64,000 nt of DNA. Origin: an uncultured Fidelibacterota bacterium (GTDB taxonomy: Bacteria; Fidelibacterota; Marinisomatia; Marinisomatales; UBA1611). The DNA is taken from contig CAJWHW010000005.1 of assembly GCA_913040915.1 (NCBI GenBank), positions 1-64,000 of the forward strand, in the 5' to 3' direction. A model generated the notes under the pieces. The model was not told where the DNA came from and searched no databases. It saw nothing but the letters and a program-made list of their open reading frames with translations. This document shows positions 25,532 through 60,993 of the stretch, piece by piece. The translations under genes were made by a program, and so were the position numbers. How positions within the stretch are numbered: the stretch's first letter is position 1; each line of letters opens with the position of its first letter.

Positions 25532-25597
25532 TACAGTAACTCTAGTAGCACTTGATGGGTTATTTGATTTTGAAATCAAATGATTATAATTATTATT

Positions 25598-29627: not shown

Positions 29628-29724
29628 AATTTGATTATCAATAAAATTTTGTACCCTTAAAACGATTTCTCCAACAATAAAACTCATTGATTCTAGAATT
29701 AAACCATACCAGATAAATATACTT

Positions 29725-34096: not shown

Positions 34097-35074
34097 TTAT
34101 TTTTTCTTAAACATACGTACATAATCAATTAAATATTTACTTGGGAATATAGAATTATCAATCCCTTGTTGACCACCCCAGTCTCCACCAATTGCAAGAT
34201 TGATAATTATAAAGAAAGGGTGGTCATATGGCCACTTTTCATAATCCATATTTTCATCTTTACTATATTCAAAATATTGTTGATCATTAAAATAGCCTTT
34301 GATTTTTGTTGAATCCCAATCAACCGCGTAAGTATTATATTTGTTTTCAATTTCTTGAGAGTAATAAACACCTTGTTGTTCTGTACCAGATAAGTCACCC
34401 CAAAGATTGTTATTATGAAGACTAAAATATATGTGATTTGGATCGTACCCAACGTGTTCCATAATATCAATTTCGCCACATTTTGGCCAACCAACTAAAT
34501 CAATATTCCGACTCAACATCCAAATCGCTGGCCAAGTTCCTATGCCGGATGGTAATTTTGCTCGAATTTCAATATAACCATACTGAATTTCTAATTTATC
34601 TCTTGTATTAACTCTACCAGAATAATAGTTAGGGTCATCAGGGTTGAAAGGATTTTCCTTTTTTGCTTTAATATTCAAATTTCCATCACTTAGATATACA
34701 TTTTCTGAACTTTTAGTATATGATTGAGCTTCATTATTTACTACTCCTGCAGACATTACTTCTATATTCCAATAGTCAAGGTTTAAAGAATTTCCATTAA
34801 ACTCATCATTCCAATAATAATCGTATCCTTGAGGAATATCATCATCGCTAATACAATTCCCATCATCAATTGTAGCTTTGGAATCATAGTTTCCGGCTGA
34901 TGAATCAGTACATCCGAAATAATCACAATCCCCGTCATCAATTGAAGCTAATGAATCATAGTTTATTGCTAATGAATCGGTACACCCAATCAATGGTTGA
35001 TCTTTTTTCAGGTTTTCAGGATCTTCACAAGAAAAAAAGAATATTGGTAATAATGTGAAAAGAAAATTAATCAT
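34097..35074 (-). CDS. GH16 endo-beta-1,3-glucanase (laminarinase) lipoprotein
   Basis: Lipobox FFSC; WNDEFNG, NNE.Q.Y, YGYIEIRAKLP.G.GTWPAIWML, GEIDIMEH, INLAIGG, IDYVR. Confidence 0.92.
   Translation of the reverse strand: MINFLFTLLPIFFFSCEDPENLKKDQPLIGCTDSLAINYDSLASIDDGDCDYFGCTDSSAGNYDSKATIDDGNCISDDDIPQGYDYYWNDEFNGNSLNLDYWNIEVMSAGVVNNEAQSYTKSSENVYLSDGNLNIKAKKENPFNPDDPNYYSGRVNTRDKLEIQYGYIEIRAKLPSGIGTWPAIWMLSRNIDLVGWPKCGEIDIMEHVGYDPNHIYFSLHNNNLWGDLSGTEQQGVYYSQEIENKYNTYAVDWDSTKIKGYFNDQQYFEYSKDENMDYEKWPYDHPFFIIINLAIGGDWGGQQGIDNSIFPSKYLIDYVRMFKKK
34853..34987 (-). repeat. Two tandem GCTD..A.NYD..A..DDG.C peptide repeats
   Basis: GCTDSLAINYDSLASIDDGDC and GCTDSSAGNYDSKATIDDGNC; a third related copy at about 45812-45874. 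Confidence 0.85.
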
Positions 35075-36557
35075 GAGATGTCATTTTTGATCCATAATCT
35101 AATAGGTGGTCATCTGTCAAAATTGGAAAAGGTGGCTCTAGAGAATGATATGCTTGATTTGAATACATCGCAATTAAATCAATAGATGATAAGTGTATTG
35201 TTTCAAATTTTCCTGTGTTTATCTTAATCTTTTTTGAATATTTAACTTGAAGCGAGTCTATTTTATTAATCAATGAAGGATTAGGTAATTTATTTTCGGT
35301 CGTGTTTAAATCAATCTGCAGTCCCCCAGTATAATTCTCTTTAATGATTACGGCCTTAACATAATCATGCCATTTCTGTGTTGTTTGTATAACATTGGCA
35401 TCTTCATCAATCCCTAATTCATATCCTCTCTGGGTGATATGCATATCACGAATAAGATCTACAATCGCTAGCTTTAATTCGTTTGTGAATTGATTTGGAA
35501 TAATATTTTTTTTTCGAAAAACAAGAGGATGTTTTTTTATTAAAGCCATTAATTCATTAAGAGTCCAATATTTTCCATCATGATATAAAATATTATCATT
35601 TCCCATCTCATCGATTTGATTTAAAAATGTAAATTCCATTTTATTATCTAATTCCCAAATATGGTTTTGAATTATATTTTCCTTTTTAGAACGTTCAATC
35701 ATATAAACTTTAGCTACTTTTTCTGCGAAATTCTTATAATTAATTGTATTAAATATTATGTTTTTACCTCGCATTATATCAGAAACATACTCTGAATATT
35801 TATTTTTTGCTTTTTCATCAAGCATATCATTTTTCACTGATTCCCTAATTTCCTGCTTTTGTTTCTCTGTAATATTTACACGTTTAGTCCAACCCATAAT
35901 CTCTAAATAAAAAACTGTAGAATCAGGTAACTTATAAGGTCCGTAGATTTTATTTAATTCTGGACCTAGTACATACAGAAGTTCTTTAACTTGATTTATC
36001 ATTGGGTCGTTGAAAGTCAAGGTTTTATTGGTAAGTTTTTCTTCTATACCTAATAAATAGGCTGTCTCTCTTAAAGTATTTTCACCTGCAAAAGTCTCAA
36101 GGCTTTTTAGATCTCTTTCTTTACAAAGTATGAATTCTAATTCATATGTCCTGTTTCTTAACTCGATACGATTCAAAAGGCTTTTTTTATTTATTTTAAC
36201 ATGATCATAACCATATTTCTTCAACATGGCATGCCTCATTGCCTGCTCCTTTTGGCCTATAATGAAATATTTTTGGGTATCATTTATTTTCAAATCGGAC
36301 CGATCAAATTCAAGAGCCAATAGCTTTTCAGCAATAAGAGAATTCAAAGCTATTTTTTTATGAACGTAATTGTCTCCTATACAATAGATCGGTCTCAAAG
36401 AATATTCACATCTCTTCAAAAAATCATTGACAGTAATAACTTTATCTTCAATTTTTGCTAAGATTATTTCAGAATCAAGATTTACTTTAGGAGATTTATT
36501 GCATGAGATGTAGATTAAAAATAATAGACTATTAAATATATATAATTTTCTAATCAT
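35067..36557 (-). CDS. Lipoprotein with SurA/PrsA-N-like chaperone region
   Basis: Lipobox ISC; ILAKIEDKVITVNDF...LNSLIAEKLLALE resembles foldase N-domains; no clear intact parvulin motif. Confidence 0.6.
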   Translation of the reverse strand: MIRKLYIFNSLLFLIYISCNKSPKVNLDSEIILAKIEDKVITVNDFLKRCEYSLRPIYCIGDNYVHKKIALNSLIAEKLLALEFDRSDLKINDTQKYFIIGQKEQAMRHAMLKKYGYDHVKINKKSLLNRIELRNRTYELEFILCKERDLKSLETFAGENTLRETAYLLGIEEKLTNKTLTFNDPMINQVKELLYVLGPELNKIYGPYKLPDSTVFYLEIMGWTKRVNITEKQKQEIRESVKNDMLDEKAKNKYSEYVSDIMRGKNIIFNTINYKNFAEKVAKVYMIERSKKENIIQNHIWELDNKMEFTFLNQIDEMGNDNILYHDGKYWTLNELMALIKKHPLVFRKKNIIPNQFTNELKLAIVDLIRDMHITQRGYELGIDEDANVIQTTQKWHDYVKAVIIKENYTGGLQIDLNTTENKLPNPSLINKIDSLQVKYSKKIKINTGKFETIHLSSIDLIAMYSNQAYHSLEPPFPILTDDHLLDYGSKMTSHD

Positions 36558-36577
36558 CCAATAAAATAGGTTGATAA

Positions 36578-37654
36578 TTAAAATAAATTAAAACGAATCG
36601 TTATCAGGGAAACATCACCTAAAAGGCCTACGGACTGATAAGAGTAATCAATTCCAACATTTTGATTATTAACAAATTTTCTATCAAAACCAACGCCATA
36701 CGTTATTGTTGAAAAAGGTAATTCATAATCAAATATGGATTGATTTTCATTTGCTTGTGTAATCCCTAAACCTTTTACGCCAGCTCTAAGGTGGAATGTA
36801 TTTCCTCCCCCGATTGTATAACTGTATTGTAACCCTGAATTAATTGATTCACTATTATTATTTGGGTGCAAAACATCAACTGACATTATAAGAGATTGGT
36901 TATTTTTCGCAATCGGTTTAATTGAAGCACCTAATCTAAATATGAGTGGGAGCTCCCAAGATTCTGTTCTGAATTGACCTATAACATTATCATAATTACC
37001 ATTCTCATTTTCAAGTATATCTATAGGATTGATCAAATCGATACCATCATACTTCATTTTTGTACCGTAGTTTGATATACTCATACCAATTCTTATTCCA
37101 TCATTTCTATTCTTTGTTCTAGAAAAATAATTGGTTTTAATAATTACTCCTATATCAACAGCGTTAGCTCTTGCTGATGAATGCCAAATATTAGAATTAA
37201 TCATCTTTAAGGATACCCCAAAAGAGAACCAATTAACTAAACTCCTAGCATAGGCGATTGCTGCTGCTAATTCATTTGCCGAGTAATACTCTCCTGTACC
37301 ATTTTGGTTTTGTACATTTGTCACTTCTATAGAACCATAATCAAAATCAGTAAACCAAGCACTTATAACACCATAATTACCCATATTGAATGCTCCTGCT
37401 GTAGAAAAATGTTTTATGCCTGCAACCCAATTTTGAGATGAAATACCTATTTCTAATCCATTTACATTTGCCAAACCCGCAGGATTCCAATAAGCAGATA
37501 TTGCATCTTCCGCTAAGCTGACATATGCTTCTCCCATTGCGACAGCATTACTGCTGATCCCAATTTCTAAAAAATTTGCAGATGTCGTCCCATATCTATA
37601 TTGTGAATAAATTATATTTCCAAGGAGAATAATAAAAACAAATATATTTTTCAT
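36578..37654 (-). CDS. PorV/PorQ (UPF0164)-like outer-membrane beta-barrel
   Basis: GTTSANFLEIG..S..AMGEA......D..A.YWNPAGL; FSFG...K, D.G, LP..FR.G; terminal Phe. Confidence 0.85.
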   Translation of the reverse strand: MKNIFVFIILLGNIIYSQYRYGTTSANFLEIGISSNAVAMGEAYVSLAEDAISAYWNPAGLANVNGLEIGISSQNWVAGIKHFSTAGAFNMGNYGVISAWFTDFDYGSIEVTNVQNQNGTGEYYSANELAAAIAYARSLVNWFSFGVSLKMINSNIWHSSARANAVDIGVIIKTNYFSRTKNRNDGIRIGMSISNYGTKMKYDGIDLINPIDILENENGNYDNVIGQFRTESWELPLIFRLGASIKPIAKNNQSLIMSVDVLHPNNNSESINSGLQYSYTIGGGNTFHLRAGVKGLGITQANENQSIFDYELPFSTITYGVGFDRKFVNNQNVGIDYSYQSVGLLGDVSLITIRFNLF

Positions 37655-40600
37655 TTTATTATTGCAAACTTTCCGATTATTTCTTCATTGTTCAGAGTAT
37701 TATTGGGGTAATTTGGCTTAACGTGAAACAAATACATCCCTGCTGCAACTTCTAAGCCTTCTTCATTAAGTAGGTCCCAATGCACCATTCCGACGTCAGG
37801 TCCTGCATTATTGTTCGAAATAATAGTTTTAACTTTAACTCCACTTGGTGTAAAAATTGTGATTTTGCATTCAGATGGTATATTTGTAAACATAATTTTT
37901 CTAGGTTGATTCAAATATGGATTGATGACTGCTTCTTCCATTGCATTCGTTCCAACATAAGGATTAGGAACAACTCTTACTTTTTTTAAATCATTATTTA
38001 AATTATCTACGTTAATTGGTTTTAAAGAATCAATGGCAAACTCAAATGTATCAGTATTCCAAAAATTTCTATTCCAGCTTATTGCATATCGTGAATCTGT
38101 TTTGGGATAATCGATACTATCTATATTGAAGAAATCCATAATAAATAATGTTCCCTGCCAACTGTTCATCGAATCAATTTGGCCAACAATTATACGATCA
38201 TTTTTTAAATCAAATTCTTGATCGAGACTCCAGGATGATCCCTGATAGTCTTGCACAACCAAATCCATCAAAGTGTAGTTACCATTATCATCTAAAATGG
38301 ATTTATTTATCACATAAAAGGGAAAAGACTGATCTAGAATTATCCTATTTGGGAACCACAACCGATTGTCAAATTCATCATAAATACCAACCGGACTTCC
38401 AACTTGGGATGTATAACTTATATCACTTGTAAAAACAATTTCGCAATCCCATGGTATAAGTTTTGACTCCCTCGATGATATGGTAATATTAAAATCACCA
38501 GAGTTAGTTGTTATCCAACCAGTATTAAGTGTATCTAATTGGGGGATGGTAGAATTTTGACCAATTTTGAGTTGCAGGCCTTCAAACACATCGGAGAAAA
38601 CAATGTTATTAAGTGACCATGTCTCTGTTGATTCATTATATAACAAGTTTGTCCCTGAATAATTAGTACGACCTGGATTTAATGCATCAATCGGACTTTC
38701 TTTATAGACTATTTGTCCTGTAGTTTTATTAAATACAGAATACCCCGGATTAGTAAAATAAATTGGTAAACTTTCTTCATTATACGAAGTATCAAAGTCA
38801 AAAGTGACCATGTACTTATTTCCAGGTTTTAATTCACTTCGAGATGCAAGGTTAGGTTCGATTTTACCCGTCCCAAGAATATTGTTATTTAATGAATCTA
38901 TACTTATTGTCGGATCAACATAACCAGCAGCATTTGCTCTCGGTGTCACAATTGCAATGTTTTTTCCAATCCCACGAATGTTGTCAAATTCATCTATATC
39001 AATAACAGTGTTATTCTCTGATGGTGCAATTCCCGGGCCAATATCGGGGGCTCCATAATCATAGGCAACTATAGCATAATAATAAGTCCTACCATTCTGA
39101 ACATTATCATCTTTAAAGTAATGCTGGATTCCAGTATTATCACCAAGATTATAAGATGCACCATTGACAAGACCATATTCAGTAAAACCACTGTATTCAT
39201 TAATTATATCACACTGGAATATGGGTTTTAAAAACATGGGCGTACCGTATCCATCAGTGATAACTTCAGAATCAGAAAAGTATTTATCTGTTGATCGAAA
39301 TAATTTATATCCTTCAAAATCATTTACATTACCTAAAAATGGGTCACGCGTTAATTTATCGGCATCATCATCCCACGTTAGCATTACGAAGCCATCTCCC
39401 GCTGAAGCTGTAAGCGTTGGTGTTTTAGGTGGCTGTGCAAACCTATAGTCTTTTTCATATATGGTTTGTACTATTTCTTTTAATTTGAATAATGCAGGTG
39501 CACTATGGCTTGATGAATTAAGTCCTTCCAATGGGTCATAGGAATGAATCTCAGCCATAGAGATCCTTTCAGTTTTTCCTCGAAATAATGGAAAGGGACC
39601 TGATGCAAATAGTTCAACTAAATTTGAAATCGTTCCGTAAAACTCCATTAATGAATCAGCAGATACTAAATCCCACATAACGTCATCATTACGAAACCAT
39701 GGGCTACCAGGAGGGGCAGGATGTTGATCAAATATAGGAAAAAGCTGAAAGGATGTTAAACCAACCATATCAGATTCTGAAACATCTGTAACGGCAAAAT
39801 TTGGTTCACATCCAATAGATTCAACATAATCTGGTCGATGATTTCCCTCGCCTTCATCAGGTCCTGTATAGTTGATTTCTAAAGGACCTACACCATCAAG
39901 ACCAACATCATCACCAGGATTTTCACCTAAATCATATATACCATTTTCATTAATATCTTCTCCGTCTTGCCAATCCTGGTCTTCATCAGCATCCCAGTGT
40001 GGCTTTAGTTCAGCTGGACTTACTTTATAAAATTCTAAAAATTTATTTATATCATCAATACCATCGTAAGGACCAACGAATGCATCTGCAATATTATCTC
40101 TTTTTTCATCGATGATACCATCATCATCGTTATCAATTCCATCATAGGCCAAGCCAGGACTCTCTAAATACGCAAATCCCATTATTCCTGGCACAAGCCC
40201 CGAGAGACCTATTCCATTTTCATCCCAAGAATAAGAAAGGTCAAGCAAATCATTGAAATAGCCTATCTCATCAGAGCCATCTCCACCTATTGCATTATCA
40301 ACCCAATATCCAAAACAAACTTCAGGTAAATCATACTCCGAAATATTTGAAATATTATATTCCCAGAATATTGCATCTCTTGCCTGTGGATTATTCCATT
40401 GAAATCCTCTAGTTTCAACTCTTAGACCTAAACCACCCCACGGGCTTCCCCCTTGTATAGATGTATTTTCATCAATTATTTTACTACTATATCTAGGAAA
40501 ATATTTGACCATATCATCATTACCTAAATACTCTAGATCATGAGCATCATTAACGACAAAATAAGTTTCTAAATCAGCATAAGTTATTCCTCGGCCAAAC

Positions 40601-41154
40601 CGTCCATTCCATTCACCTGGCCAAATAGGTCCTTCAGCTGATGGCCATCCACCATTCGGCCATGAATCTGGCAAATTACTTAAAGCTGGATATTCACTAT
40701 TTTCATTGAAATATCCAAAAACTGGGTAGAAACCCCATTCAACCTGTCCGGTAGGATCTGTGTCCATTTCTTCCCGGTAGCTGGTTTGCAAGTAATAAAG
40801 AGTATGATAATTTTGATTTTGAAGATTAACTAAATTTGTAATTGGTAATGTATCAACTGTTGTTGAATCAAGATCGTCTTCTATATACACTTTAGCGCCA
40901 ACAAGAAGACCTACTCCATCAAGCATTTTTGTACCATCTGGATTATTAGGCCATTTTGATACGTTTGGCTTAGGCCAACTCGAAAGTTCAGTAGTATTTT
41001 GATAATATAGGTATACTCTATTACCATTCATATATCCTTCTCTTTCAGCTTCAATATCCCCTGCCGGATCATCGGGCCCAGCATAATCAGTACCCTGCCC
41101 AAACTGGAATGAATTTAAATAGGTAATTAATATTAAAAGTTTTAAATATTTCAA
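37651..41154 (-). CDS. Large secreted acidic protein (1167 aa) with FN3-like segment and variant C-terminal sorting domain
   Basis: Signal peptide; DGIDNDDDGIIDE Ca-binding-like loop; DFEGYKLFRS...NGRTYYYAIVAYD; tail VRVVPNPY...FTNIP...WDLLN..G..VAAGMY...GKFAIIK. Confidence 0.75.
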   Translation of the reverse strand: MKYLKLLILITYLNSFQFGQGTDYAGPDDPAGDIEAEREGYMNGNRVYLYYQNTTELSSWPKPNVSKWPNNPDGTKMLDGVGLLVGAKVYIEDDLDSTTVDTLPITNLVNLQNQNYHTLYYLQTSYREEMDTDPTGQVEWGFYPVFGYFNENSEYPALSNLPDSWPNGGWPSAEGPIWPGEWNGRFGRGITYADLETYFVVNDAHDLEYLGNDDMVKYFPRYSSKIIDENTSIQGGSPWGGLGLRVETRGFQWNNPQARDAIFWEYNISNISEYDLPEVCFGYWVDNAIGGDGSDEIGYFNDLLDLSYSWDENGIGLSGLVPGIMGFAYLESPGLAYDGIDNDDDGIIDEKRDNIADAFVGPYDGIDDINKFLEFYKVSPAELKPHWDADEDQDWQDGEDINENGIYDLGENPGDDVGLDGVGPLEINYTGPDEGEGNHRPDYVESIGCEPNFAVTDVSESDMVGLTSFQLFPIFDQHPAPPGSPWFRNDDVMWDLVSADSLMEFYGTISNLVELFASGPFPLFRGKTERISMAEIHSYDPLEGLNSSSHSAPALFKLKEIVQTIYEKDYRFAQPPKTPTLTASAGDGFVMLTWDDDADKLTRDPFLGNVNDFEGYKLFRSTDKYFSDSEVITDGYGTPMFLKPIFQCDIINEYSGFTEYGLVNGASYNLGDNTGIQHYFKDDNVQNGRTYYYAIVAYDYGAPDIGPGIAPSENNTVIDIDEFDNIRGIGKNIAIVTPRANAAGYVDPTISIDSLNNNILGTGKIEPNLASRSELKPGNKYMVTFDFDTSYNEESLPIYFTNPGYSVFNKTTGQIVYKESPIDALNPGRTNYSGTNLLYNESTETWSLNNIVFSDVFEGLQLKIGQNSTIPQLDTLNTGWITTNSGDFNITISSRESKLIPWDCEIVFTSDISYTSQVGSPVGIYDEFDNRLWFPNRIILDQSFPFYVINKSILDDNGNYTLMDLVVQDYQGSSWSLDQEFDLKNDRIIVGQIDSMNSWQGTLFIMDFFNIDSIDYPKTDSRYAISWNRNFWNTDTFEFAIDSLKPINVDNLNNDLKKVRVVPNPYVGTNAMEEAVINPYLNQPRKIMFTNIPSECKITIFTPSGVKVKTIISNNNAGPDVGMVHWDLLNEEGLEVAAGMYLFHVKPNYPNNTLNNEEIIGKFAIIK

Positions 41155-43979
41155 AATGATATCGTTAAACCCAGTTTAAATTGGCGAGGACCTGAAAACA
41201 TGGAAGGATCTTTGTATCTATCATCGTAAGTATTGAAATTACTGCGGTGGCCCATCAGCTCTGTATTATCCACTACAGCTGTATAGGCCCGACCCGTTTC
41301 TGAACTTACACTATACTCATTATAACGATCTGTTAAATTATAAACTAGCAATTCCAGTTTAGGAGTTAAATTGAATATTGTAGGAAGAAAAATATATCCG
41401 GAAATATCAGCATGATAATTAAATGGTTTATAATCATTATTTGGATACAGGTTTAATAAGGCCAAATTACTTTCATCTTGTGGGCTAAATGTATAAGGAG
41501 TGCCGGAGTTGTAATAACCAGTTACAGAAATTCCATATCTTTCAGTGTTATAAGCGATTGTAACATTAAAAGTATGTCGCTGGTCCCAACTCATTGGTAT
41601 AAATCGAATAACCTTATCAATACTGGCGCCCTGTCTATTGAATGTTTGGGCTGGATTATCAGCATTCCCACGGGTGAACTGATAAGTATAGTTGGTCTGT
41701 AAAAATAAATTTTTTCCGCTATAATCTAATTTAAACTCAAGCCCTCTTACATTACCATAGTCCTTATTTGTATATATCCCATATTCAATTTGATTGTATG
41801 TGCTTACAGTTGCTAAGCTCAAAAGCTTATAGATATCTCTGTAATAAAGGTTGACGTCCAGTCCTAAATTTTTTGTTAATTCCTGCCAAAGTCCAATTTC
41901 ATAGCTTATTGTTTTTTGTGGATTTAGACCAAGGCTATCTGAACCAAGGTTTGCATTGCCAACCGTTGTAGAGTAATCGCTGGGTCCAATTATGGAAGAA
42001 TGATTTGTGTAAATAGAATACATGGGAGGCATCTGTAAAAAATGTCCATAACTAAAATGAAGTACTGCAATACCGCCAAGTTCGTAAGCTAAACCAAATC
42101 TTGGACTCATTTGGTATGTTATTTTTGAATCTATTGGTACGGACATTTTTGTACCATCAATAACTAAATTTCCATCCTGATCCAGCGAATCAGTACCTGA
42201 TATATTTTCTAAATAATACGTAGATTTATTGGTTGGATTTCTTCTCTGACTTGGGAAAGTAGTGTTAGCATCAAAAGAATCATAGCGTAGTCCTATATTA
42301 ATGACTATTTCATCCAATTCAAATTTATCTTGAATATATGCAGAAAATTCTTTCGGCTTTACATTATAAACATCGGCATATATTGTACTATCAGGATAAA
42401 TAATTGGCCTATAAGATTGAGACTCATATGCAGTTCCACTGTAAGCATTTCTGATAGTATGATATTTATTATTTAAAAAATAATCTGTTAGTGAAAATCC
42501 CATTTTTATACTGTGCGCATTATTTATCTGCCACGTTAAATCAGTACGTATGTTTTCTGTTACAGTTTCTCGTTGCGTGTACCCTTTATCCTGGCCACCT
42601 GTAAAAAAACCGGGTCCATAAGTAGTATAATATTTATCATGGACATAATTATAAACCGTATCCCCTTTAGAATAATTTAAGCCATGGTAGATACCGTTAT
42701 CAGATGCAATAAAATATGAATCAATATCCTTAAATACATAATTACCATAGTTATTTATGGTTCTAGAGTACTTGATATCATAAAACATTTTTTGGTTAAT
42801 TAAATGATTTAATTGAAACATAGATAATACAGAATTAGTTGCTTCATGAGGCCTACCATCTGGATTATACTTGTAAAGATGGTTATAACTTTGTGATAAA
42901 CCATTATTTATATTTGTCATAAAAGAAAATTTTATATTTCCATAATTAAATGTTAGTTTACCCATCAAAGATTCATATTCACCAGTGTTCATGGAGACGA
43001 ATAAACTATCGCCTGTATTTTCACTAGTCCAGTTAGAAGAATCTTGATCGTAATAATTGCTTAAATCCCAAGTATTAAATCTCCTTAGACCATTCAAATG
43101 TCCATTGATATTTTGGAATCGGTAGTTTATAAAATAATTAACTCTATTTTTGATGATCGGGCCGCTCATATTTAGTTTAAAATCAGTATTTGAATTCATA
43201 CCAAAAGGATCAAGACCAATAAATATTTCTTCACCATTTTTTTCATTTTTTGTTAGATAAGATGATAAACCTGTATTTATGTTTGCTTCAAATTGATTAC
43301 TACCATCCTTGGTAACGGCATTTACGACTCCACTCATGGCATTTCCGTATTCTGCATTAAAGGTACCAGTAATTACTTCCAAGTCCTTGACTGCTTCTAC
43401 TTCAAGATTTGAAACTGCAGAGACACCGCCAAATGCATCATTAACGGGGACACCATCAATTAAATAACTGACTTCATCACTTCTTCCACCGCGAAAATGG
43501 CCAGCCACTACACCTGCCTGCATGTTTACAACCGCATCCAAGTTTTCTACAGGCAATATTTCAATTTCATCCGAAGAAATATTTTTAATTGTACCTGTTT
43601 GGTCCTTTTTTCTACTGAGTTTTGTGGCATAAATCACAACTTCATTCCCTTCAATCAAGCTCTGATTCATTTTGACATCTAAAGAAGTTGTTCGATTAAC
43701 TGACACAATTACATTTTCTATGATAATTGTTTCAAATCCAATCATCATTACTTTTACTGTATAGTCACCAGGACTGATATTAATCAGGTTAAAGTAACCA
43801 TCTTCATCAGCACTAGTACCACTATAATCAGATAGTATGATTATATTTGCTCCTACTAAGGGAGTGTTATTATCCCTATTGAGGACTCTGCCTGATATTT
43901 TTCCTGTTGTCTGCGCGTTGATGCTTATAACAAAAAATAATATTCCAATAATAGCTTTAGCAATTATTCTTATTCTCAT
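41151..43979 (-). CDS. TonB-dependent receptor with carboxypeptidase-regulatory-like N-domain
   Basis: GKISGRV...PLVGANI...DG.F.L; plug HFRGGRS.EV.Y.IDG, TG.FNAEYGNAMSGVVN; SPR.G, YE.G; terminal PRQFKLGLTISF. Confidence 0.92.
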   Translation of the reverse strand: MRIRIIAKAIIGILFFVISINAQTTGKISGRVLNRDNNTPLVGANIIILSDYSGTSADEDGYFNLINISPGDYTVKVMMIGFETIIIENVIVSVNRTTSLDVKMNQSLIEGNEVVIYATKLSRKKDQTGTIKNISSDEIEILPVENLDAVVNMQAGVVAGHFRGGRSDEVSYLIDGVPVNDAFGGVSAVSNLEVEAVKDLEVITGTFNAEYGNAMSGVVNAVTKDGSNQFEANINTGLSSYLTKNEKNGEEIFIGLDPFGMNSNTDFKLNMSGPIIKNRVNYFINYRFQNINGHLNGLRRFNTWDLSNYYDQDSSNWTSENTGDSLFVSMNTGEYESLMGKLTFNYGNIKFSFMTNINNGLSQSYNHLYKYNPDGRPHEATNSVLSMFQLNHLINQKMFYDIKYSRTINNYGNYVFKDIDSYFIASDNGIYHGLNYSKGDTVYNYVHDKYYTTYGPGFFTGGQDKGYTQRETVTENIRTDLTWQINNAHSIKMGFSLTDYFLNNKYHTIRNAYSGTAYESQSYRPIIYPDSTIYADVYNVKPKEFSAYIQDKFELDEIVINIGLRYDSFDANTTFPSQRRNPTNKSTYYLENISGTDSLDQDGNLVIDGTKMSVPIDSKITYQMSPRFGLAYELGGIAVLHFSYGHFLQMPPMYSIYTNHSSIIGPSDYSTTVGNANLGSDSLGLNPQKTISYEIGLWQELTKNLGLDVNLYYRDIYKLLSLATVSTYNQIEYGIYTNKDYGNVRGLEFKLDYSGKNLFLQTNYTYQFTRGNADNPAQTFNRQGASIDKVIRFIPMSWDQRHTFNVTIAYNTERYGISVTGYYNSGTPYTFSPQDESNLALLNLYPNNDYKPFNYHADISGYIFLPTIFNLTPKLELLVYNLTDRYNEYSVSSETGRAYTAVVDNTELMGHRSNFNTYDDRYKDPSMFSGPRQFKLGLTISF

Positions 43980-44017: not shown

Positions 44018-44064
44018 AAAAAAAACAAAAAAAAAGGGCAGATTTATTAGCCTGCCCATTTTTT
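44018..44064 (-). terminator. Rho-independent terminator between the 972-aa gene and the TonB receptor gene
   Basis: Minus strand GGGCAG-GCTAATAAAT-CTGCCC followed by T9-G-T8. Confidence 0.8.
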
Positions 44065-44071
44065 CTAGAGT

Positions 44072-46990
44072 TTACTTCAGAAAGGTTATTTTTGAAATAT
44101 CACGGCCAGTCTTACGGTCAATCACCGCAAAGTAAATACCTGACTGGAGCACTTGTCCAAAACTATCTTTCCCATCCCAACGATATAGATAATGACCAGG
44201 TTCGTGGATTTTGTTAACTATTGTTTTTACTTCTTGTCCTAAAATGTTCAAGATAGTAATAGTTATCTGTTCACTCTCCGGTAATTCGTAATATATATTA
44301 ATATATGGATTAAACGGATTCGGATAGGTTTTGTAAGAAAATGTAGATGGTAGCATCTCATCTAAGTTTTCTTCATTGCTCAATTGATCACACGTGACAC
44401 ATGCACCCCAACAAACTTCAGCCAATTCCAAGAGACCTTCTATTGCCGTAAATCCATAGTTGGCATGCTCATCAGTAGGATTAAAGTCACATGCAGAACC
44501 TAAAGGAGCTCCAGCTTGTATCCCTGAATCCCAACCATTGATGACAAATAAATATTCATAATCTGAGCCAGCCATTAAATTAGATACTGTTCCTGTATAA
44601 ACCATATCTCCATCTTCATCTGTAAGTACAGCACCCCAACCACTCCAACCATCAAAACTTCCTGTTACACAAACTTGATAACCTTCTGGAAATGTAGAAG
44701 CAACTGTTGATACATCAACAGCAAACTGAGCCGATGAACCAAGAGGCTCTGTTGGGCAACCACCATATGAAATTGCATCCAAGACCAGGACACCACTCCC
44801 GCCAGCATCTTGGATAGGTAAAAGCCTCACATACATATCATAATCAGAGTCAAATATACCGCACTCTTCCGGCACTGTCTCGTAATTATCGCCATAACCA
44901 AATAGTAAGGTATGCTCTTGGTCAGACATTAAATCATTTACTGTGCCAGTATAAACCATGTCCCCATCTTCATCTACAAGTATAGTTTGACCACCAAAGC
45001 TATCCCAATCGTTAAAAGAGCCAAAGACATATGGTGCATCAGTACCATCAAAGTCCTCTACACCACTCATATCTAAGTTAAAGGTAACATCGACCGGACC
45101 TGCAGGTGCGCAATCTAAACATCCACCAAAACAAATAGGTCCAATTGTAGTATTAGTTTCAGGGAGAGTATACATTCTGTTAATTCCCCCGCCCCAATTA
45201 TTGATATTATCACAATCTGCAGGAACATCTTCAACAAGATCACCATTCATAAACTTAAACTCAATAATAGAGCCAGATGTCATATCTGGAATGGTTATTT
45301 CATATACACCATTAGCGTCATCATCTGTCATTGGCAGAGTACCCCATGAAAACCAGCTACCATGTAGAAACACACCTGTTTCATCTACATCTTCATACTG
45401 CATATTTACAGAAAAAGTAACATCAATCAGATCAAATGCTGGGCAAAATTCATTATCCGTGCATGTACCATAGCATGCATTAATTATTGTATCATTAGTC
45501 GACGTAATCAATTCCCTATCAGACCATGTCCCTACGGCACAATCCTGGCCAGCAATATTTTCTTTCCCTGACCAGTTTGTATTTCCATCTTTGGTGTATG
45601 AATATGCAAAAGTTGTATTTTCTTGCAACTGAACCGTTTTACTAAATACTAAGTGACCATCAACACTTAGTTCAGAATTGTAAGAAAGAGCATAGTTTTC
45701 ATTACCCGGTGCCCCAAAGAAAGCGCCACCAGCCAGATAAGGTGTATCTGATTCGGTGTATGTAGGTATACCGCTCATATCTAGATTGAAAGTAACTTCA
45801 ACACACTCATGACAACTTTCATCATCGACAGTTGCATCAGAATTGTAATTACAAGCATTTGGATCCATACAGCCTGGTACAACTGCCGAGTATATGGCCT
45901 GTATATCTTCCAGCAAAAACTCACCGTAATTAGTTCCAGTTCCACTTTGTATTACTTCAATCGATAAGCCTCCAATTTGATCTAAATCAAGAACTCCATT
46001 ACCTTCGATCCCGACTGTCCAACTTGCATACGTTAAGACAAAACCTTCATTGTAAGGGCCCATAGCGGTTCCGCCAACGAGTGGAATTCTATATTCAATC
46101 CAACCATCATCCGCTACGTTGTAAAACGGACTGTTTGCTTCTCCCTCAAAGAATGAAAACCAAACTTCGGTATCATCTCTGGTCTCCCAAGTGCTTGCAT
46201 CACTGACGTCAAACAGATTAACCCTAAAGGACATAGCGTCAAGATCACTTGGTTGCGCTAGATTACGAAACTTAAATGAAAGATAGTTGAAGTCAGATAT
46301 ATCAACTGCAGCATCATAGATATGATAAACACTAGTATAACCACCCCATGCTAAATCACCAACTGTGCCCCAAGACCAGGACATAACAGGAGAATCCGAA
46401 TCCGGCGCCTGGTCAGCTGGAATTTGAACAAGTGTGCTATAATTCTGTGCACTCTCAGATTCATCTGCTTCTACCCAAAATGCGCCATCCCCTTCATCAG
46501 TCGCACTTTCAAGGGTATTAAAATCACTAAATATAAAAGATGTAACAGCATTTTCTACAACAGTCACGTTAGTTAATGTAACTGGAGCATCTAGAGTTGT
46601 TACATATAATAAAAATGAACTATATGTATTCGCTGCATCTTGTGCAGGAATTGCTACCGAGTAGGCTGTTTCTGCTGTTCCACTAACCGTTACAGTCGCA
46701 GTTTCAAATTCTGGAACATTGTTTGGATGTGGCTGATACTGAAACATGAACTTCACATCTACGTCTGTTCCAGCAGTTGCACCTGTAAAGGTAATTTCAC
46801 CACCATTCGGGAAGCTGAATGGATAGATAGTTGCATCTTCATTGGCGAAGCCTGCCCATGATTCAGATCCTGTTGGGTTTGTATATGTATTGCCATCAAC
46901 AACTGCACCACCAAATGCACCTGAAAATACGATATCTTGTCCAATCGCGAGTGTAGCCATAATTAAGAATGAAATCATATTTTTTTTCAT
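44072..46990 (-). CDS. Secreted multimodular glycan-binding-like protein with T9SS type-A-like sorting domain
   Basis: Signal peptide; two N-terminal beta-sandwich-like modules; four VTF.(L/V)DM...G.(F/W)..W...D.D.D.VY repeats; YPNPFNP...KITFLK; AGGAG SD. Confidence 0.75.
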   Translation of the reverse strand: MKKNMISFLIMATLAIGQDIVFSGAFGGAVVDGNTYTNPTGSESWAGFANEDATIYPFSFPNGGEITFTGATAGTDVDVKFMFQYQPHPNNVPEFETATVTVSGTAETAYSVAIPAQDAANTYSSFLLYVTTLDAPVTLTNVTVVENAVTSFIFSDFNTLESATDEGDGAFWVEADESESAQNYSTLVQIPADQAPDSDSPVMSWSWGTVGDLAWGGYTSVYHIYDAAVDISDFNYLSFKFRNLAQPSDLDAMSFRVNLFDVSDASTWETRDDTEVWFSFFEGEANSPFYNVADDGWIEYRIPLVGGTAMGPYNEGFVLTYASWTVGIEGNGVLDLDQIGGLSIEVIQSGTGTNYGEFLLEDIQAIYSAVVPGCMDPNACNYNSDATVDDESCHECVEVTFNLDMSGIPTYTESDTPYLAGGAFFGAPGNENYALSYNSELSVDGHLVFSKTVQLQENTTFAYSYTKDGNTNWSGKENIAGQDCAVGTWSDRELITSTNDTIINACYGTCTDNEFCPAFDLIDVTFSVNMQYEDVDETGVFLHGSWFSWGTLPMTDDDANGVYEITIPDMTSGSIIEFKFMNGDLVEDVPADCDNINNWGGGINRMYTLPETNTTIGPICFGGCLDCAPAGPVDVTFNLDMSGVEDFDGTDAPYVFGSFNDWDSFGGQTILVDEDGDMVYTGTVNDLMSDQEHTLLFGYGDNYETVPEECGIFDSDYDMYVRLLPIQDAGGSGVLVLDAISYGGCPTEPLGSSAQFAVDVSTVASTFPEGYQVCVTGSFDGWSGWGAVLTDEDGDMVYTGTVSNLMAGSDYEYLFVINGWDSGIQAGAPLGSACDFNPTDEHANYGFTAIEGLLELAEVCWGACVTCDQLSNEENLDEMLPSTFSYKTYPNPFNPYINIYYELPESEQITITILNILGQEVKTIVNKIHEPGHYLYRWDGKDSFGQVLQSGIYFAVIDRKTGRDISKITFLK
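44389..45802 (-). repeat. Four tandem ~110-aa CBM-like modules
   Basis: Modules start VEVTFNLDM, IDVTFSVNM, VDVTFNLDM, SAQFAVDV and end CYGTC, CFGGC, SYGGC, CWGAC; modules 3 and 4 share the identical DEDGDMVYTGTV. Confidence 0.8.
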
Positions 46991-47297: not shown

Positions 47298-48296
47298 ATG
47301 AAAGTAACTTTAAAACATATAGCTGAAGATACAGGATTATCAATCGCGACAGTCTCTCGCGCATTAAGTCGCGAAAAAAGAACTCATAGTTCTAATGAAG
47401 AACAAATTTTTTCATCAGCAAGAAAACTTGGATACCCTATTTTTATAAATTTACATACACCTTCCAAATTGCCTATATCGTTGGTAATAAAACTTTTTGA
47501 AGGTGAATTTTATGCATACTTATTAAATGGATTCTATCAAGCTGCTCATGAATACAATACAAAAATCAATTTACATGTTATAAAAGATGATGTTGACCCT
47601 GTCGATGATATTATTCAACTCAGTAAAAATCATAGTGGTATTTGTTTATTTCTACCTTCAATGACTGATGATGAATATGTCAATATAAAAGAAGGCGTTG
47701 GGCAATATCCTATTATATCTCTTTTACCATCAAAAAACCCTAAAATCGATACTGTATGTTTTGATTCCTATCGTGGTGGTTATATGATGGCTAAACATTT
47801 TGAAGAAAAAGGTTTTAAAAAGTTCGGTTATATTTCTGGGCCATCTAAGCGAGCAGATGCGTTATTTAGAAAAAATGGATTTTTAGACCATATAAATGAA
47901 AATGATGATTTGGAATTGGTATGGACTTATGAAGGTGATTTTACCACAACTTCAGGGAAAAAAGCTTTTAAAGCATTTAAAGAATTTGGTTTAAAAAATG
48001 TGGCTGTATTTGGCGGCAATGATTATGCCTGCTTTGGATTTATAAAAGCTGCAAATGACAATGGCTACAAAACCCCGGATGATTACATTATCGGCGGTTT
48101 TGACAATGTTTCTTTTTGTGAAAATTCCAATCCAGAATTAACATCAATTGCTACAGATTTTCATGAACTGGGTAAAAAATCAATTAAGACTATTGAAAAT
48201 ATTATAACAGAAAATGCTGATAGTATTGGACAAATATCTATGATCCCTGTTAAGATTATAATGAGAAACAGTTCCAATCCCATAAGCCAAACCTAA
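47298..48296 (+). CDS. LacI family transcriptional regulator
   Basis: VTLKHIA...GLSIATVSRAL HTH; periplasmic-binding-protein-like domain with R..GF, ND..A.G, P.D..I.GFDN, P.LTSI. Confidence 0.92.
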   Translation: MKVTLKHIAEDTGLSIATVSRALSREKRTHSSNEEQIFSSARKLGYPIFINLHTPSKLPISLVIKLFEGEFYAYLLNGFYQAAHEYNTKINLHVIKDDVDPVDDIIQLSKNHSGICLFLPSMTDDEYVNIKEGVGQYPIISLLPSKNPKIDTVCFDSYRGGYMMAKHFEEKGFKKFGYISGPSKRADALFRKNGFLDHINENDDLELVWTYEGDFTTTSGKKAFKAFKEFGLKNVAVFGGNDYACFGFIKAANDNGYKTPDDYIIGGFDNVSFCENSNPELTSIATDFHELGKKSIKTIENIITENADSIGQISMIPVKIIMRNSSNPISQT

Positions 48297-48308
48297 TTCT
48301 TTATTATA

Positions 48309-49592
48309 GTGTTTATTAAGCCCAAGTATATATCAGTTCTGGGTTACTTTTTTATCTTTTTTATTTTACATGCTGATTCTGGAAACAATACTGCTTTAGA
48401 TGACTGGAGTTTGATTTGGCAGGATGAATTTAATGACTCTACCATTAATACCGCTGATTGGGAATTTGATATAGGCACGGGTGCACCGGTTTTTGAAGCC
48501 TTTGGGGCCAGTTCTTCTGAGTTTTCACCGGAAGGTTTTCCCAAAGATAATTTTTCAGTACAATGGGATGGATATTTAAAAGTAAATAAGATAGGAAATT
48601 ATAAATTTTATATTATTGCTGACGATGGTGTCAGATTCTATTTGAATGACAGTCTCATAATTGATGAATGGCAACCCCAACCCGCAACAGAATTTACTAG
48701 TAAACTAAAACTCCGAGCGAATCAAGAATATAAAATTCGCATTGAATACTTTGAAGAAGGTGGAGGCGAAGCAATAATATTTGGGTGGGAATCTAATTCA
48801 TTTCCTAAAAGTCTTATTACTAGTAACAATCTGGTGACAAGCACCGGAGAGCCAGGACTAAAAGGAACATATTACCCAAATAAATCACTAAAACTTGCAA
48901 AAAACCAGAAACCCTTTATCCGAATAGATAAAGAATTAAACTGGGTAACAACAAGCGGTGGTTGGGGAAACAATGAATCACAATACTATACAGATAACCC
49001 AAATAATGTAAGAATTGAAGATGGCAAATTAATTATCGAAGCAAAAAATGAATATTATAAAGGTTCGAATTATACTTCAGCTAGAATCAAAACAAAAAAA
49101 AGTTGGAAGTATGGACGCGTTGAGATTAGAGCGAAGCTACCTTCAGGCATAGGCACCTGGTGTGCACTGTGGGCTCTTCCTACGGATTGGACTTACGGAC
49201 CTTGGCCTCATAGTGGTGAAATTGATATATTAGAACATGTGGGATTTAATGAGGGAGAAATTATTGGTTCGGTGCATACTTCAGCAAACTCCGGCGACTT
49301 ATATGGGACCGATCAGCAAGGTAAAATCAAAATTCCAAATGCTTGTAAAGAATTCAATAATTATATCTTAGAATGGCAAGATGATGAAATAGCTGTTTCA
49401 GTAAATAATAAGAAGTTTTTCAAATACTCTAAACAGAATCGTCCATGGAAAAAATGGCCTTTTGACCAAAATTTTCATTTAATACTTAATATTGCGATTG
49501 GTGGCTCGTGGGGCGGCGCTAAAGGTATTGATGATAATGCCTTTCCCACAAAGATGGAAGTCGATTACGTGAGAGTTTATACTCACAATTAA
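48309..49592 (+). CDS. GH16 beta-1,3-glucanase with inserted PA14 domain
   Basis: WQDEFN...WEFDIGTG-[insert]-GWGNNESQYYT, YTSARIKT, YGRVEIRAKLP, GEIDILEH; insert carries DNFSVQW.G, ADDGVR, IRIEYFE. Confidence 0.9.
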   Translation: MFIKPKYISVLGYFFIFFILHADSGNNTALDDWSLIWQDEFNDSTINTADWEFDIGTGAPVFEAFGASSSEFSPEGFPKDNFSVQWDGYLKVNKIGNYKFYIIADDGVRFYLNDSLIIDEWQPQPATEFTSKLKLRANQEYKIRIEYFEEGGGEAIIFGWESNSFPKSLITSNNLVTSTGEPGLKGTYYPNKSLKLAKNQKPFIRIDKELNWVTTSGGWGNNESQYYTDNPNNVRIEDGKLIIEAKNEYYKGSNYTSARIKTKKSWKYGRVEIRAKLPSGIGTWCALWALPTDWTYGPWPHSGEIDILEHVGFNEGEIIGSVHTSANSGDLYGTDQQGKIKIPNACKEFNNYILEWQDDEIAVSVNNKKFFKYSKQNRPWKKWPFDQNFHLILNIAIGGSWGGAKGIDDNAFPTKMEVDYVRVYTHN

Positions 49593-49607
49593 TTTTACAT
49601 TATAGAT

Positions 49608-51260
49608 ATGGAATTTATAAAAACACCTTTTCTTATCATTCTAAGTTTTTTTCTAATTAATGGGTGCGGTGATAAACAAGGAATAAATAATCGAGACGGA
49701 CTTATAATATATCAGGAGCCTCAAATATCTTGGGTACGGAACTTTAATCCATTAAGCCCTGCAGGTTCCGCCCGTTGGCCAACATCAGGTGGTATTTATG
49801 AACCACTATTTATTTACAACTCCATGTCTGGAGAATTTGTACCCTGGCTTGCACTCAATTATGAATGGGAAAAAGAGAATAAAGTTTTAAAGATGTCAAT
49901 CCGTAGAGAAGTAAAATGGTCTGATGGAAAACCGTTCTCTGCACAAGATGTGGCCTTCACGTTTAATATTAAACGGAAACATCGTGCTCTGGATACCAGG
50001 GACTCTTGGGGTTATTTGGAGGAAGTGGTAGCAAAATCAGATACAAGTGTGAGTTTTGAATTCAAACGTGTTTATGTACCTGGGTTTGACGCAATTGCGA
50101 CACAATCAATTATTCCAAAGCATATCTGGAATAAAATTGAAGACCCTGTAAAGTTTACCAATCCAGATCCGATTGGGACTGGACCCTTCACGGAAATTAT
50201 TCGATTTGATAATCAATTATGGGAACTTGGAAAAAATCCAAATTACTGGCAAAAAGGAAAGCCTCATATAGAGAAACTCATTTTTCCAGCCTTCCCCAAC
50301 AACGAACAGGTCACCCTTGCATTACTCAGCGGTAAATTGGATTGGGCAGGTGCCTTTATTCCCGCTATTGAGCGTGTCTTTGTCTCAAAAGATACTGAGC
50401 ATCACAAATATTGGTTTCCATTGACGGGCCATACAACTTTTCTTCATACCAATACAAAAGATCCCATACTTAATGATGTAAGAGTACGAAAAGCAATCAG
50501 TCACTCTATAGACCGTAATCTTGTTGTTAAGGTTGGGATGTACAATTATACAAAGCCAGCACATGTTTCAGGTATATCGGGCCCAATGTCTAAATGGCGT
50601 TCACCGCATATAAATCAAAAAGAAGACTGGACTATCTATTCCCCTGAAAAGGCAAATCAACTTTTGAATGATTCTGGTTTTTATCAAAAGAAATCTGGGT
50701 TTAGATATAATCAGAGCGGGCAGGCTCTGGAATTGGATATTATCATTGTATCAGGTTGGAGTGATTGGATTAGATCTGCACAAGTCATAAGTCAGAATCT
50801 TAAGAATATCGGAATAAAAGCGAATGTGAAAACTTATGATTTTGGCACCTGGATAAGCCGTATGCAAAAAGGCGAATTCCAATTAGCAATCGGGTGGGGC
50901 GAAAAAGGAGCAACACCATATCCAATGTATAAAGGGATGATGGCTTCCGAATATTTACAGCCTATTGGAGAAATTGCCGATGTAAATTGGCACCGATTTA
51001 GTCTGGCTGCTGCAGATTCACTGTTTAGAAAATATGAAACGACATCCGATCCAACGGAAATAAAAGAAATCATATACGAATTACAAAATTTATTTGTAGA
51101 GCAAGCACCATCAATCCCGCTTTTTGCTGAACCATCTTGGGCTGAGTGTAATACAAAATTTTTCAAAAATTTTCCTAGTGCTGAAAATCCATATGCCACC
51201 TTATCCCCAAATTATTCCCCTGAACAGCTTTTCGTTTTGGTAAACGTAGAAAATCGATGA
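49608..51260 (+). CDS. ABC transporter substrate-binding protein, family 5 (oligosaccharide-binding type), lipoprotein
   Basis: Lipobox INGC; NFNP, IYEPLF, PWLA, KWSDGKPFSA.DV.FTF, PIGTGPF, GWSDW. Confidence 0.88.
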   Translation: MEFIKTPFLIILSFFLINGCGDKQGINNRDGLIIYQEPQISWVRNFNPLSPAGSARWPTSGGIYEPLFIYNSMSGEFVPWLALNYEWEKENKVLKMSIRREVKWSDGKPFSAQDVAFTFNIKRKHRALDTRDSWGYLEEVVAKSDTSVSFEFKRVYVPGFDAIATQSIIPKHIWNKIEDPVKFTNPDPIGTGPFTEIIRFDNQLWELGKNPNYWQKGKPHIEKLIFPAFPNNEQVTLALLSGKLDWAGAFIPAIERVFVSKDTEHHKYWFPLTGHTTFLHTNTKDPILNDVRVRKAISHSIDRNLVVKVGMYNYTKPAHVSGISGPMSKWRSPHINQKEDWTIYSPEKANQLLNDSGFYQKKSGFRYNQSGQALELDIIIVSGWSDWIRSAQVISQNLKNIGIKANVKTYDFGTWISRMQKGEFQLAIGWGEKGATPYPMYKGMMASEYLQPIGEIADVNWHRFSLAAADSLFRKYETTSDPTEIKEIIYELQNLFVEQAPSIPLFAEPSWAECNTKFFKNFPSAENPYATLSPNYSPEQLFVLVNVENR

Positions 51261-52243: not shown

Positions 52244-52250
52244 ACAAAGT

Positions 52251-57556: not shown

Positions 57557-57557
57557 A

Positions 57558-60974: not shown

Positions 60975-60993
60975 TTCAATGAAAAGAATATAA

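Follow-up and report, generated by a model that had tools for sequence, protein, structure and literature searches.

How might a TonB-dependent receptor serve glycan uptake when no SusD gene stands beside it? The question is raised by a 64,000-nucleotide stretch of contig CAJWHW010000005.1 from an uncultured Fidelibacterota bacterium (the window), in which a receptor gene is followed by genes for a secreted 1167-aa protein (here the partner), an outer-membrane barrel of the PorV/PorQ family, a SurA/PrsA-like lipoprotein and a glycoside hydrolase family 16 (GH16) glucanase (Table 1). On balance we favor the explanation that receptor, partner and barrel, here called the trio, act as one unit for uptake at the outer membrane, filling the role of SusC/SusD by means of other components. 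The genes are tightly packed. The stop and start codons of receptor and partner overlap as TTGA (41151-41154) and those of partner and barrel as ATGA (37651-37654); 20 bp separate the barrel gene from the lipoprotein gene, which overlaps the GH16 gene by 8 nt. These positions and both short overlaps agree with the original prediction for this locus, as do the absence of a SusD gene next to the receptor and the acidic composition of the partner (15.3% D+E, 6.3% K+R).

Table 1. Features of the trio and its surroundings. Positions are those of the window; residue numbers are those of the partner.
Feature	Position	Strand	Basis
TonB-dependent receptor, 942 aa; CarboxypepD_reg N-extension, plug and barrel	41151..43979	-	PF13715/PF07715/PF00593
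Secreted partner protein, 1167 aa, TTG start, unannotated family	37651..41154	-	open reading frame (ORF)
Beta-supersandwich and linker helix (galactose-mutarotase-like fold), residues ~25-575, broken by acidic insert	39430..41082	-	VIA-align
Acidic insert, residues 336-465, 30% D+E, Dx[DN]xDG-type loops	39760..40149	-	composition, motifs
FN3-like domain, residues 576-745	38920..39429	-	Fn3-like 3mpc E 0.015 (weak); Foldseek matches are FN3 chains
Variable all-beta region, residues 746-1045	38020..38919	-	36-37% pairwise identity vs 63-65% elsewhere
Variant type 9 secretion C-terminal domain (VVPNPY...GKFAIIK)	37654..37983	-	PorZ-like
Conserved tail insert of ~18 residues, 1070-1087	37894-37947	-	outside predicted barrel interface
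PorV/PorQ-family outer-membrane barrel, 358 aa	36578..37654	-	NF033709
SurA/PrsA-like lipoprotein, 496 aa, Cys19	35067..36557	-	weak SurA_N_2
GH16 glucanase, final gene of run	34097..35074	-	PF00722 E 2.3e-23
Ordinary type-A secretion cargo, 972 aa, weak CBM48-like repeats, upstream of receptor	44072..46990	-	TIGR04183 27 vs 23; CBM_48 E 2.2e-5
Terminator-like hairpin and T-run between 972-aa gene and receptor	44036..44057	-	sequence scan
Divergent beta-1,3-glucan (laminarin-type) operon: LacI, PA14-GH16, family-5 ABC transporter, GH1, GH30, GH149 phosphorylase, GH16 with type-A tail	47298..62781	+	

The three genes keep together across several phyla. We fetched 79 loci from Neomarinimicrobiota, KSB1, Calditrichota, Ignavibacteria and unclassified bacteria, 36 of which are flanked on each side by 4.5 kb or more; near-relative loci are at 44-69% identity. 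Receptor, partner and barrel occur within 4.5 kb in all 36 well-flanked loci, and their linkage is therefore more than chance. The gene order is also conserved. Receptor-partner-barrel is dominant, and partner-receptor-barrel and receptor-barrel-partner also occur. Among the top 30 same-phylum loci the receptor is directly upstream in 28 of the 28 visible cases and the barrel directly downstream in 28 of 28. Strict adjacency over all visible cases gives 59/71 for an upstream receptor and 49/57 for a downstream barrel, most of the misses being alternative orders; three loci (L030, L053, L074) have no receptor upstream, and their downstream side is cut off.

The partner has a signal peptide and no lipobox (a lipobox-like pattern is seen in 2 of 104 homologues), and it therefore needs another anchor. 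It ends in a variant of that C-terminal domain (CTD) which type 9 secretion system (T9SS) cargo carries, which, as originally noticed, is clearly unlike the four complete YPNPFN...LK tails elsewhere in the window (4789-6558, 6636-8285, 44072-46990 and 60994-62781). The PorZ model was matched by 79/79 variant tails versus 26/88 ordinary type-A tails, and an M36-type CTD model by none of the 79 versus all 88. For the type-A model TIGR04183, the partner's own tail was not listed at E ≤ 0.1, and 75 of the 79 homologous tails matched weakly (best E 2e-5), versus 88/88 ordinary tails (best 1e-15). Judged by sequence, the variant tail is related to type A but divergent. Its pairwise identity of 60-64% makes it as conserved as the core of the protein, versus 31-48% for neighboring type-A tails. 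Among solved CTDs the nearest belong to PorU and PorZ, with weak sequence matches (E 0.04 and 0.09); aligned with PorZ (5m11) by VIA-align, the tail gave Z 12.1 over 94 residues at a root-mean-square deviation (rmsd) of 2.1.

The barrel matches NF033709 over the full length of the model (1-326 of 326) with a score of 193.6 versus 90, and falls under the equivalog cut-offs for both PorV (82.9 versus 250) and PorQ (85.1 versus 220). It matches PF19572 (PorV) and not PF11751 (PorP/SprF), with a profile match to PorV 6h3i_F at E 4.5e-18. The PorV candidate that scores highest in the genome is a different paralogue, on contig C33, and in the barrel tree the module barrels, except that of L144, group apart from this candidate with support of 0.91.

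Prediction of a complex between barrel residues 19-358 and tail residues 1033-1167 scored 0.88, perhaps helped by likeness to PorV-CTD structures, and the best of three controls scored 0.00. In calibration the mark for this score was reached by 116 of 157 solved pairs and 2 of 215 mismatched pairs, counts that are rough for the alignments used. The runs agreed in at least 90% of contacts, with a predicted local distance difference test (pLDDT) of at least 70 for the partner. The modeled interface uses the VVPNP, FTPSG, AAGM and GKFAIIK segments of the tail, and its columns are more conserved than the rest in both proteins (barrel 0.77 versus 0.63; tail 0.83 versus 0.59). The tail insert is conserved as well (mean 0.74) outside this interface, and may touch something other than the barrel.

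These features change the precedent. The original prediction had appealed to type-B cargo with PorP-like barrels. The type-B model TIGR04131 was not among the 15 families matched by the 79 tails at E ≤ 0.1, CHU_C had no match on the partner, and the barrel is of the PorV family, not PorP/SprF. The module does share with type-B CTDs and PorP/SprF a barrel gene directly downstream of the cargo, a cognate pairing and a cargo that is probably uncleaved (PMC9143113; PMC12618676; these and the other papers named by number are cited for the passages covered). PorZ/PorQ and PorU/PorV are closer. The CTD of PorU remains bound to PorV, and that of PorZ to PorQ (PMC10202324); there, as by our model here, a type-A-related CTD is kept on a PorV-family barrel, and PorZ and PorU are what the tail matches best both among solved structures and in NCBIfam. 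The module differs from these pairs in that its cargo is linked to a nutrient receptor, outside the secretion machine, in having many cognate pairs per genome, in a barrel that lies under the PorV and PorQ equivalog cut-offs, and in the insert of its tail.

The receptor is not a member of the SusC family. Against the SusC model TIGR04056 it scored 50.8 bits (cut-off 368), with only its N-terminal part matched, and TIGR04057 (SusC/RagA) was not among its matches at E ≤ 0.01. A profile search of the genome, which is 85% complete, returned no match to SusD (PF07980). SusD is a helical lipoprotein of the tetratricopeptide-repeat type; the partner lacks a lipobox, is nearly all beta, and has a longest mature helix of 15 residues in its model. 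No SusD chain appeared in the VIA-align list for the partner model, which alone excludes nothing. Like SusC/SusD (RagA/RagB), the module joins a TonB receptor bearing an N-terminal CarboxypepD-like extension tightly to a surface partner, and occurs as many paralogues per genome, each by different glycosidases and often with a LacI regulator. It differs in the low SusC score of the receptor, in a partner that is twice the size of SusD, nearly all beta, without lipobox and with a T9SS tail, and in a third gene, the PorV-family barrel, that is obligatory in the loci examined. By analogy, the module would work like SusC/SusD and be anchored like PorZ/PorQ, but it is a member of neither.

A strict genome-level replacement of SusD was considered and rejected. 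SusD-like PF14322 occurs in 10 of the 151 same-phylum genomes sampled, and 8 of those 10 also carry the partner family. In the phylum of the Melioribacteraceae genome G151 (201 genomes, carriers called at E ≤ 1e-40, three candidates scored per genome), SusD occurs in 112 genomes and accompanies the partner family in 53 of 89 carriers. Only 1 of the 33 genomes in that phylum with at least 8 SusD matches carries the partner family. Such presence counts, like the tree-distance comparisons below, are not independent across kin and describe a pattern rather than provide a test.

The partner has no Pfam and no NCBIfam match. Clustered at 50% identity, its family comprises 2557 clusters for E ≤ 1e-3, of which 1094 have E ≤ 1e-10, and its closest named homologues are mostly from Marinimicrobia. 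All 151 same-phylum genomes match at E ≤ 1e-3, the weak matches being to the tail and FN3 domain only; a strong match (best E ≤ 1e-80) is found in 127 of the 151, counted by eye. When the sequence of the 1167-aa protein was searched against solved structures, no match was significant, none of 30 matches in the ESM Atlas had a common Pfam family, and Foldseek with the whole model retrieved only multi-domain FN3/Ig chains at TM <0.25. The AlphaFold2 model (63-row alignment; pLDDT 88.2, predicted TM-score 0.78) is nearly all beta.

The N-terminal domain of this model (aligned over residues about 35-573) matched best the beta-supersandwiches with linker helix of carbohydrate-active proteins: dextran dextrinase 9ju0 (Z 20.1, 261 residues, rmsd 3.1), glucoamylase 1lf6 (Z 18.3, 229, 3.0), cellobiose phosphorylase 2cqs (Z 18.1, 261, 3.7) and GH149 6hq6 (Z 15.3, 259, 3.8). 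Weaker matches were aldose 1-epimerases (Z 12-14) and GH174 9k1g (Z 13.7, 243 residues, rmsd 4.1). With the N-domains of GH15, GH94, GH149, GH65 and GH116 and with aldose 1-epimerases it shares the supersandwich and the linker helix behind it (Z 14-20, with 210-275 residues aligned); it differs from those N-domains in an identity of 7-13%, in the acidic insert of 130 residues, and in having no helical catalytic barrel. The (alpha/alpha)6 barrel is missing, since DSSP assigns the model only short scattered helices and what comes after the linker helix are beta domains. The model has neither a SusD fold nor a helical hydrolase barrel.

The acidic insert has little secondary structure in the model, and D341, D343, D345, E460 and D462 are invariant in 149 sequences; its loops suggest that it binds calcium. 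D194, E196, D203, R249, W253 and D260 are conserved in the N-domain. The FN3-like domain is common to all five variant-tail proteins of the genome in hidden Markov model searches. Folded alone, the variable region reached a pLDDT of 90.7; its best VIA-align match was marginal (the FlgK beta-domain, Z 8.7, 86 residues, rmsd 2.2), and no clear match to a carbohydrate-binding module (CBM) was found (Foldseek best E 7.7e-4). The supersandwich N-domain was also seen on ordinary type-A tails, in L150, L057 (17619-20198), P0137, P0138 and P0140; L150 has no receptor and no barrel and lies beside a GH57 gene.

The module recurs as paralogues in different company. From four other genomes we took another 20 regions, each centered on one of the stronger paralogue hits, leaving out weaker tail-only hits. 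In 19 of them the N-domain, FN3 domain and variant tail come with their own receptor and barrel; in the exception the N-domain is joined to an ordinary type-A tail, without receptor or barrel. Counting catalytic domains only (single-linkage clusters of neighbors are contaminated by shared CTD and CBM domains), a glycoside hydrolase (GH), PNGase or sulfatase occurs in 30 of the 36 well-flanked loci. Among the paralogue trios, for which 86 of 100 neighbor ORFs were scanned, 11 of 19 have a GH alongside: PF10091/GH94, GH67 with GH10, GH53 with GH2, GH13, GH130, and GH16 with GH3. PF10091 corresponds to GH144. The neighbors cover xylan, galactan, starch, mannan and GH94 genes. The proposed association with carbohydrate-active enzymes (CAZymes) thus stood for the near loci, but use of the module is not confined to glycans.

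In its own genome the partner's paralogues sit by nuclease-type genes or without a CAZyme. Of five proteins with FN3 domain and variant tail, 3 abut a barrel directly, versus 3/51 other CTD proteins, two of which are atypical-tailed. One paralogue locus (L126, C26:8058-21711) runs from a 1154-aa receptor through a 1058-aa variant-tail protein and a barrel to a 1665-aa PKD-repeat variant-tail protein and a second barrel, with no CAZyme adjoining. Another (L128, C25:9430-21772) contains a 710-aa variant-tail protein, an OB-fold/DUF5689 type-A protein, a lipoprotein, a receptor and a barrel by an endonuclease/exonuclease/phosphatase gene, and may be a form of the module that takes up nucleic acid. 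At C12:42749-49761 and C33:7636-11793, atypical-tail proteins of 1426 and 931 aa abut PorV-like genes, one of which encodes a 911-aa protein that is PorV-like in its N-terminal part; these are perhaps further pairs of retained CTD and barrel. Elsewhere, in L079, L080 and L072, a single receptor/barrel pair is followed by two or three partner genes in tandem and by fragments of partners, and in L063, L067, L069 and L071 a small C-type-lectin-like gene follows the barrel, with no GH nearby.

Co-divergence of the three genes was followed in FastTree trees of 34 trios and in a distance set of 40 trios, from which L020, L037, L051, L073, L079, L080 and truncated loci were omitted; the L134 label in the trees was assigned by nearness to L133. 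Identical sister pairs recur in the N-domain, receptor and barrel trees across phyla. N-domain distances track those of the receptor barrel (rho 0.74, 300 columns) more closely than those of the PorV-like barrel (0.40, equal columns). Co-inheritance alone yields such correlations, so they give weak support for a tie between N-domain and receptor, and none for co-evolution of tail and barrel.

Around the trio the window has the make-up of a polysaccharide utilization locus (PUL). Three GH16 genes, GH1, GH30, GH149, an ATP-binding cassette (ABC) transporter and LacI surround the transport genes and define a locus for beta-1,3-glucan. GH149 scored 1485 bits versus 1150, and GH1 is above the cut-off of the BGL model; the nearest match of GH30 is an endo-1,6-beta-glucanase, below cut-off. 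The GH16 that ends the run of the trio has a Cys after its signal and is itself a probable lipoprotein. The transporter within the operon (49608-54837) is of the peptide/nickel type (family 5), also found in L036, L037 and L042, and probably imports oligosaccharides. The hairpin upstream of the receptor is weak by itself, 7 terminator-like sites being found versus 7.1 expected in shuffles. A promoter scan was at chance level (91 versus 81.6 expected), and no LacI-type palindrome was found in the intergenic stretches examined. Farther off in the window are a gingipain-like C25 peptidase whose C-terminus is a dockerin-like domain rather than a T9SS tail (26334-29687) and a protein with CBM9-like and DUF5916 domains (23120-25579).

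The lipoprotein matches SurA_N_2 at E 9e-4, below cut-off, and PrsA 4wo7 by profile at E 3.4e-4; C19 is kept in at least 90% of its homologues, among which SurA_N_2 is found in 16/30 and Rotamase_2 in 8/30, at weak E-values. It is present in 28 of the 36 well-flanked near loci. Its slot is filled in 7 of the 19 paralogue trios, 5 times by the lipoprotein and twice, in L138 and L142, by clear PPIC rotamase genes. The lipoprotein is thus an optional member of the module: the private chaperone that had been proposed is co-encoded here and is not always present elsewhere.

In the sequence of events that we favor, the 1167-aa protein would be exported by Sec and then by the type 9 translocon, as suggested by its signal peptide, its CTD, and SprA and PorU in the genome; SprA is above cut-off, split over two contig ends (C14:60-3008 and C25:28840-31953), and PorU scores 563 versus 420 (contig C9). 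The variant CTD would stay uncleaved on the co-encoded barrel as PorZ does on PorQ; we consider this retention, modeled for the docking and indirectly in keeping with the core-like conservation of the tail, quite probable. Gene linkage, fold and co-divergence lead us to propose that the barrel holds the partner beside its cognate receptor, where the supersandwich, stiffened by calcium loops, would capture or cap oligomers made by surface GH16 enzymes and hand them to the receptor. That partner and receptor form a functional unit appears likely; for direct capture of substrate by the partner we see an even chance. From the context, the cargo here would be beta-1,3-glucan oligosaccharide, passed onward to the ABC transporter and to GH1, GH30 and GH149. 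The SurA/PrsA-like lipoprotein, where present, may help to fold or deliver receptor or partner.

Several observations weigh against this explanation. The docking score may reflect likeness to solved PorV-CTD complexes (PorV entries, 8gl6), and the model would leave the housekeeping PorV possible as the partner's anchor in place of the co-encoded barrel. Tail-barrel distances correlate with rho 0.39, not above the 0.51 of tail and receptor. Clade tracks substrate only partly: the clade of this partner also holds GH92/GH29/GH89/PNGase loci, and one GH16/GH3 locus falls outside it. The genes scanned include no GH in 6/36 near loci and 8/19 paralogue trios; one paralogue trio lies among M16/M28 peptidases, and several have no recognizable neighbors. 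Pairing is not always one-to-one, since L080 has three partners after one barrel and the two 339-aa barrels of L126 are identical (same ends, same scores), which suggests recent duplication or assembly collapse. At L127 (C31:15809-21090) a 1057-aa variant-tail protein overlaps a receptor-like gene of 703 aa that includes a plug, and the contig has no barrel. SusD, as noted, co-occurs with the partner family in many carriers. Finally, the motor of the T9SS is unaccounted for in this genome: GldK-like sequence matches below cut-off, and GldM gave no match in a search whose control matched nowhere (GldL and GldN were not searched); a PorP/SprF search of the genome was likewise uninformative, its control matching nowhere.

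Other roles for the partner must be weighed against uptake. The partner on its barrel could dock the receptor and serve there as scaffold, as gate or as a canopy for folding, in the way of BamH/BamM on the FadL-type BamG, with specificity in the receptor alone. Paralogues located by starch, xylan, beta-glucan and peptidase genes conserve one and the same set of N-domain residues, as would suit a role that does not depend on substrate, and the calcium-type loops and foldase neighbor resemble BamM (PMC12611786). BamG docks on BamA and holds BamH (PMC12578637); in the barrel assembly machinery of Bacteroidota (PMC12578637, PMC12611786), too, a FadL-type 14-stranded barrel lies against a large barrel and its extracellular face holds a surface partner, but there BamA is the large barrel and the partner, BamH, a lipoprotein, and for our module docking on the receptor is only proposed. 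The best fold matches, however, are almost all carbohydrate-active proteins, and every receptor paralogue has retained a diverged partner of its own, which would be needless for a generic assembly factor; we consider this role unlikely.

A quite improbable reading is that the barrel is a dedicated shuttle or anchor and the partner a co-regulated adhesin or polymer-binder that does not touch the receptor, like glycan-binding proteins of the SusE/F type or type-B cargo. Cognate shuttles directly downstream of their cargo are known (PMC12618676; PMC9143113), and homologues of the N-domain do exist in which the tail is of ordinary type A and a receptor is missing (L150; 3/121 long representatives). 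Yet receptor and partner remain adjacent even where the order is shuffled, often with overlapping stop and start codons, and N-domain divergence follows the receptor. We give little credence to a cryptic enzyme, in which a catalytic supersandwich, mutarotase-like or GH174 fucanase-like, trims or anomerizes oligomers at the pore. The epimerase and GH174 matches and the conserved acidic and aromatic-basic set from D194 to D260 would suit it. Mutarotases, however, use a conserved catalytic His/His/Glu, and no His is conserved in residues 1-575 (best column 72/149); the invariant residues are also common to modules with unrelated substrates. Of the alternative PUL architecture that had been proposed for this locus, then, the T9SS-like cargo with its own barrel, the conserved trio and the predicted docking stand; the type-B analogy does not, the chaperone is optional, and the module is not confined to glycans.

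In the open-access literature that we found, the trio is undescribed; subscription papers and supplements were outside that scope. A 2026 review of glycoside transporters (PMC13543919) does not mention PorV, T9SS or Marinimicrobia in its main text. The passages covered of the genome papers on Melioribacter roseus and C. abyssi do not describe the trio; the former (PMC3534657) names SusC/D/E for Mros0761-0759, and whether these are true SusC/D or the trio was not checked here.

We judge it an open wager, neither side favored, that the module is a second paradigm of polymer capture in the FCB superphylum, in which a T9SS-secreted, calcium-stabilized supersandwich protein, clamped to a private PorV-family barrel through a distinct class of retained CTD, caps its cognate receptor in many substrate-specific units per genome. 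It would then serve Marinisomatota, KSB1, Calditrichota and Ignavibacteria as their principal PUL core, and be complementary to SusC/SusD, few of the SusD-rich genomes carrying the partner family. PUL prediction leans on SusC/SusD, and glycan uptake in the abundant marine SAR406/Marinisomatota, KSB1, Calditrichota and Ignavibacteria is therefore hard to see. With its strong matches throughout much of the phylum, and several paralogues per genome beside different enzymes, the trio offers a marker for such uptake. If the explanation is true, T9SS cargo would here function as a subunit of a transporter, and the module would bear directly on the hypothesis that cognate PorV-like barrels shield CTDs from cleavage (PMC10202324). 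Relatives of the trio in lineages with cultured members, Calditrichota and Melioribacteraceae, make these proposals testable.

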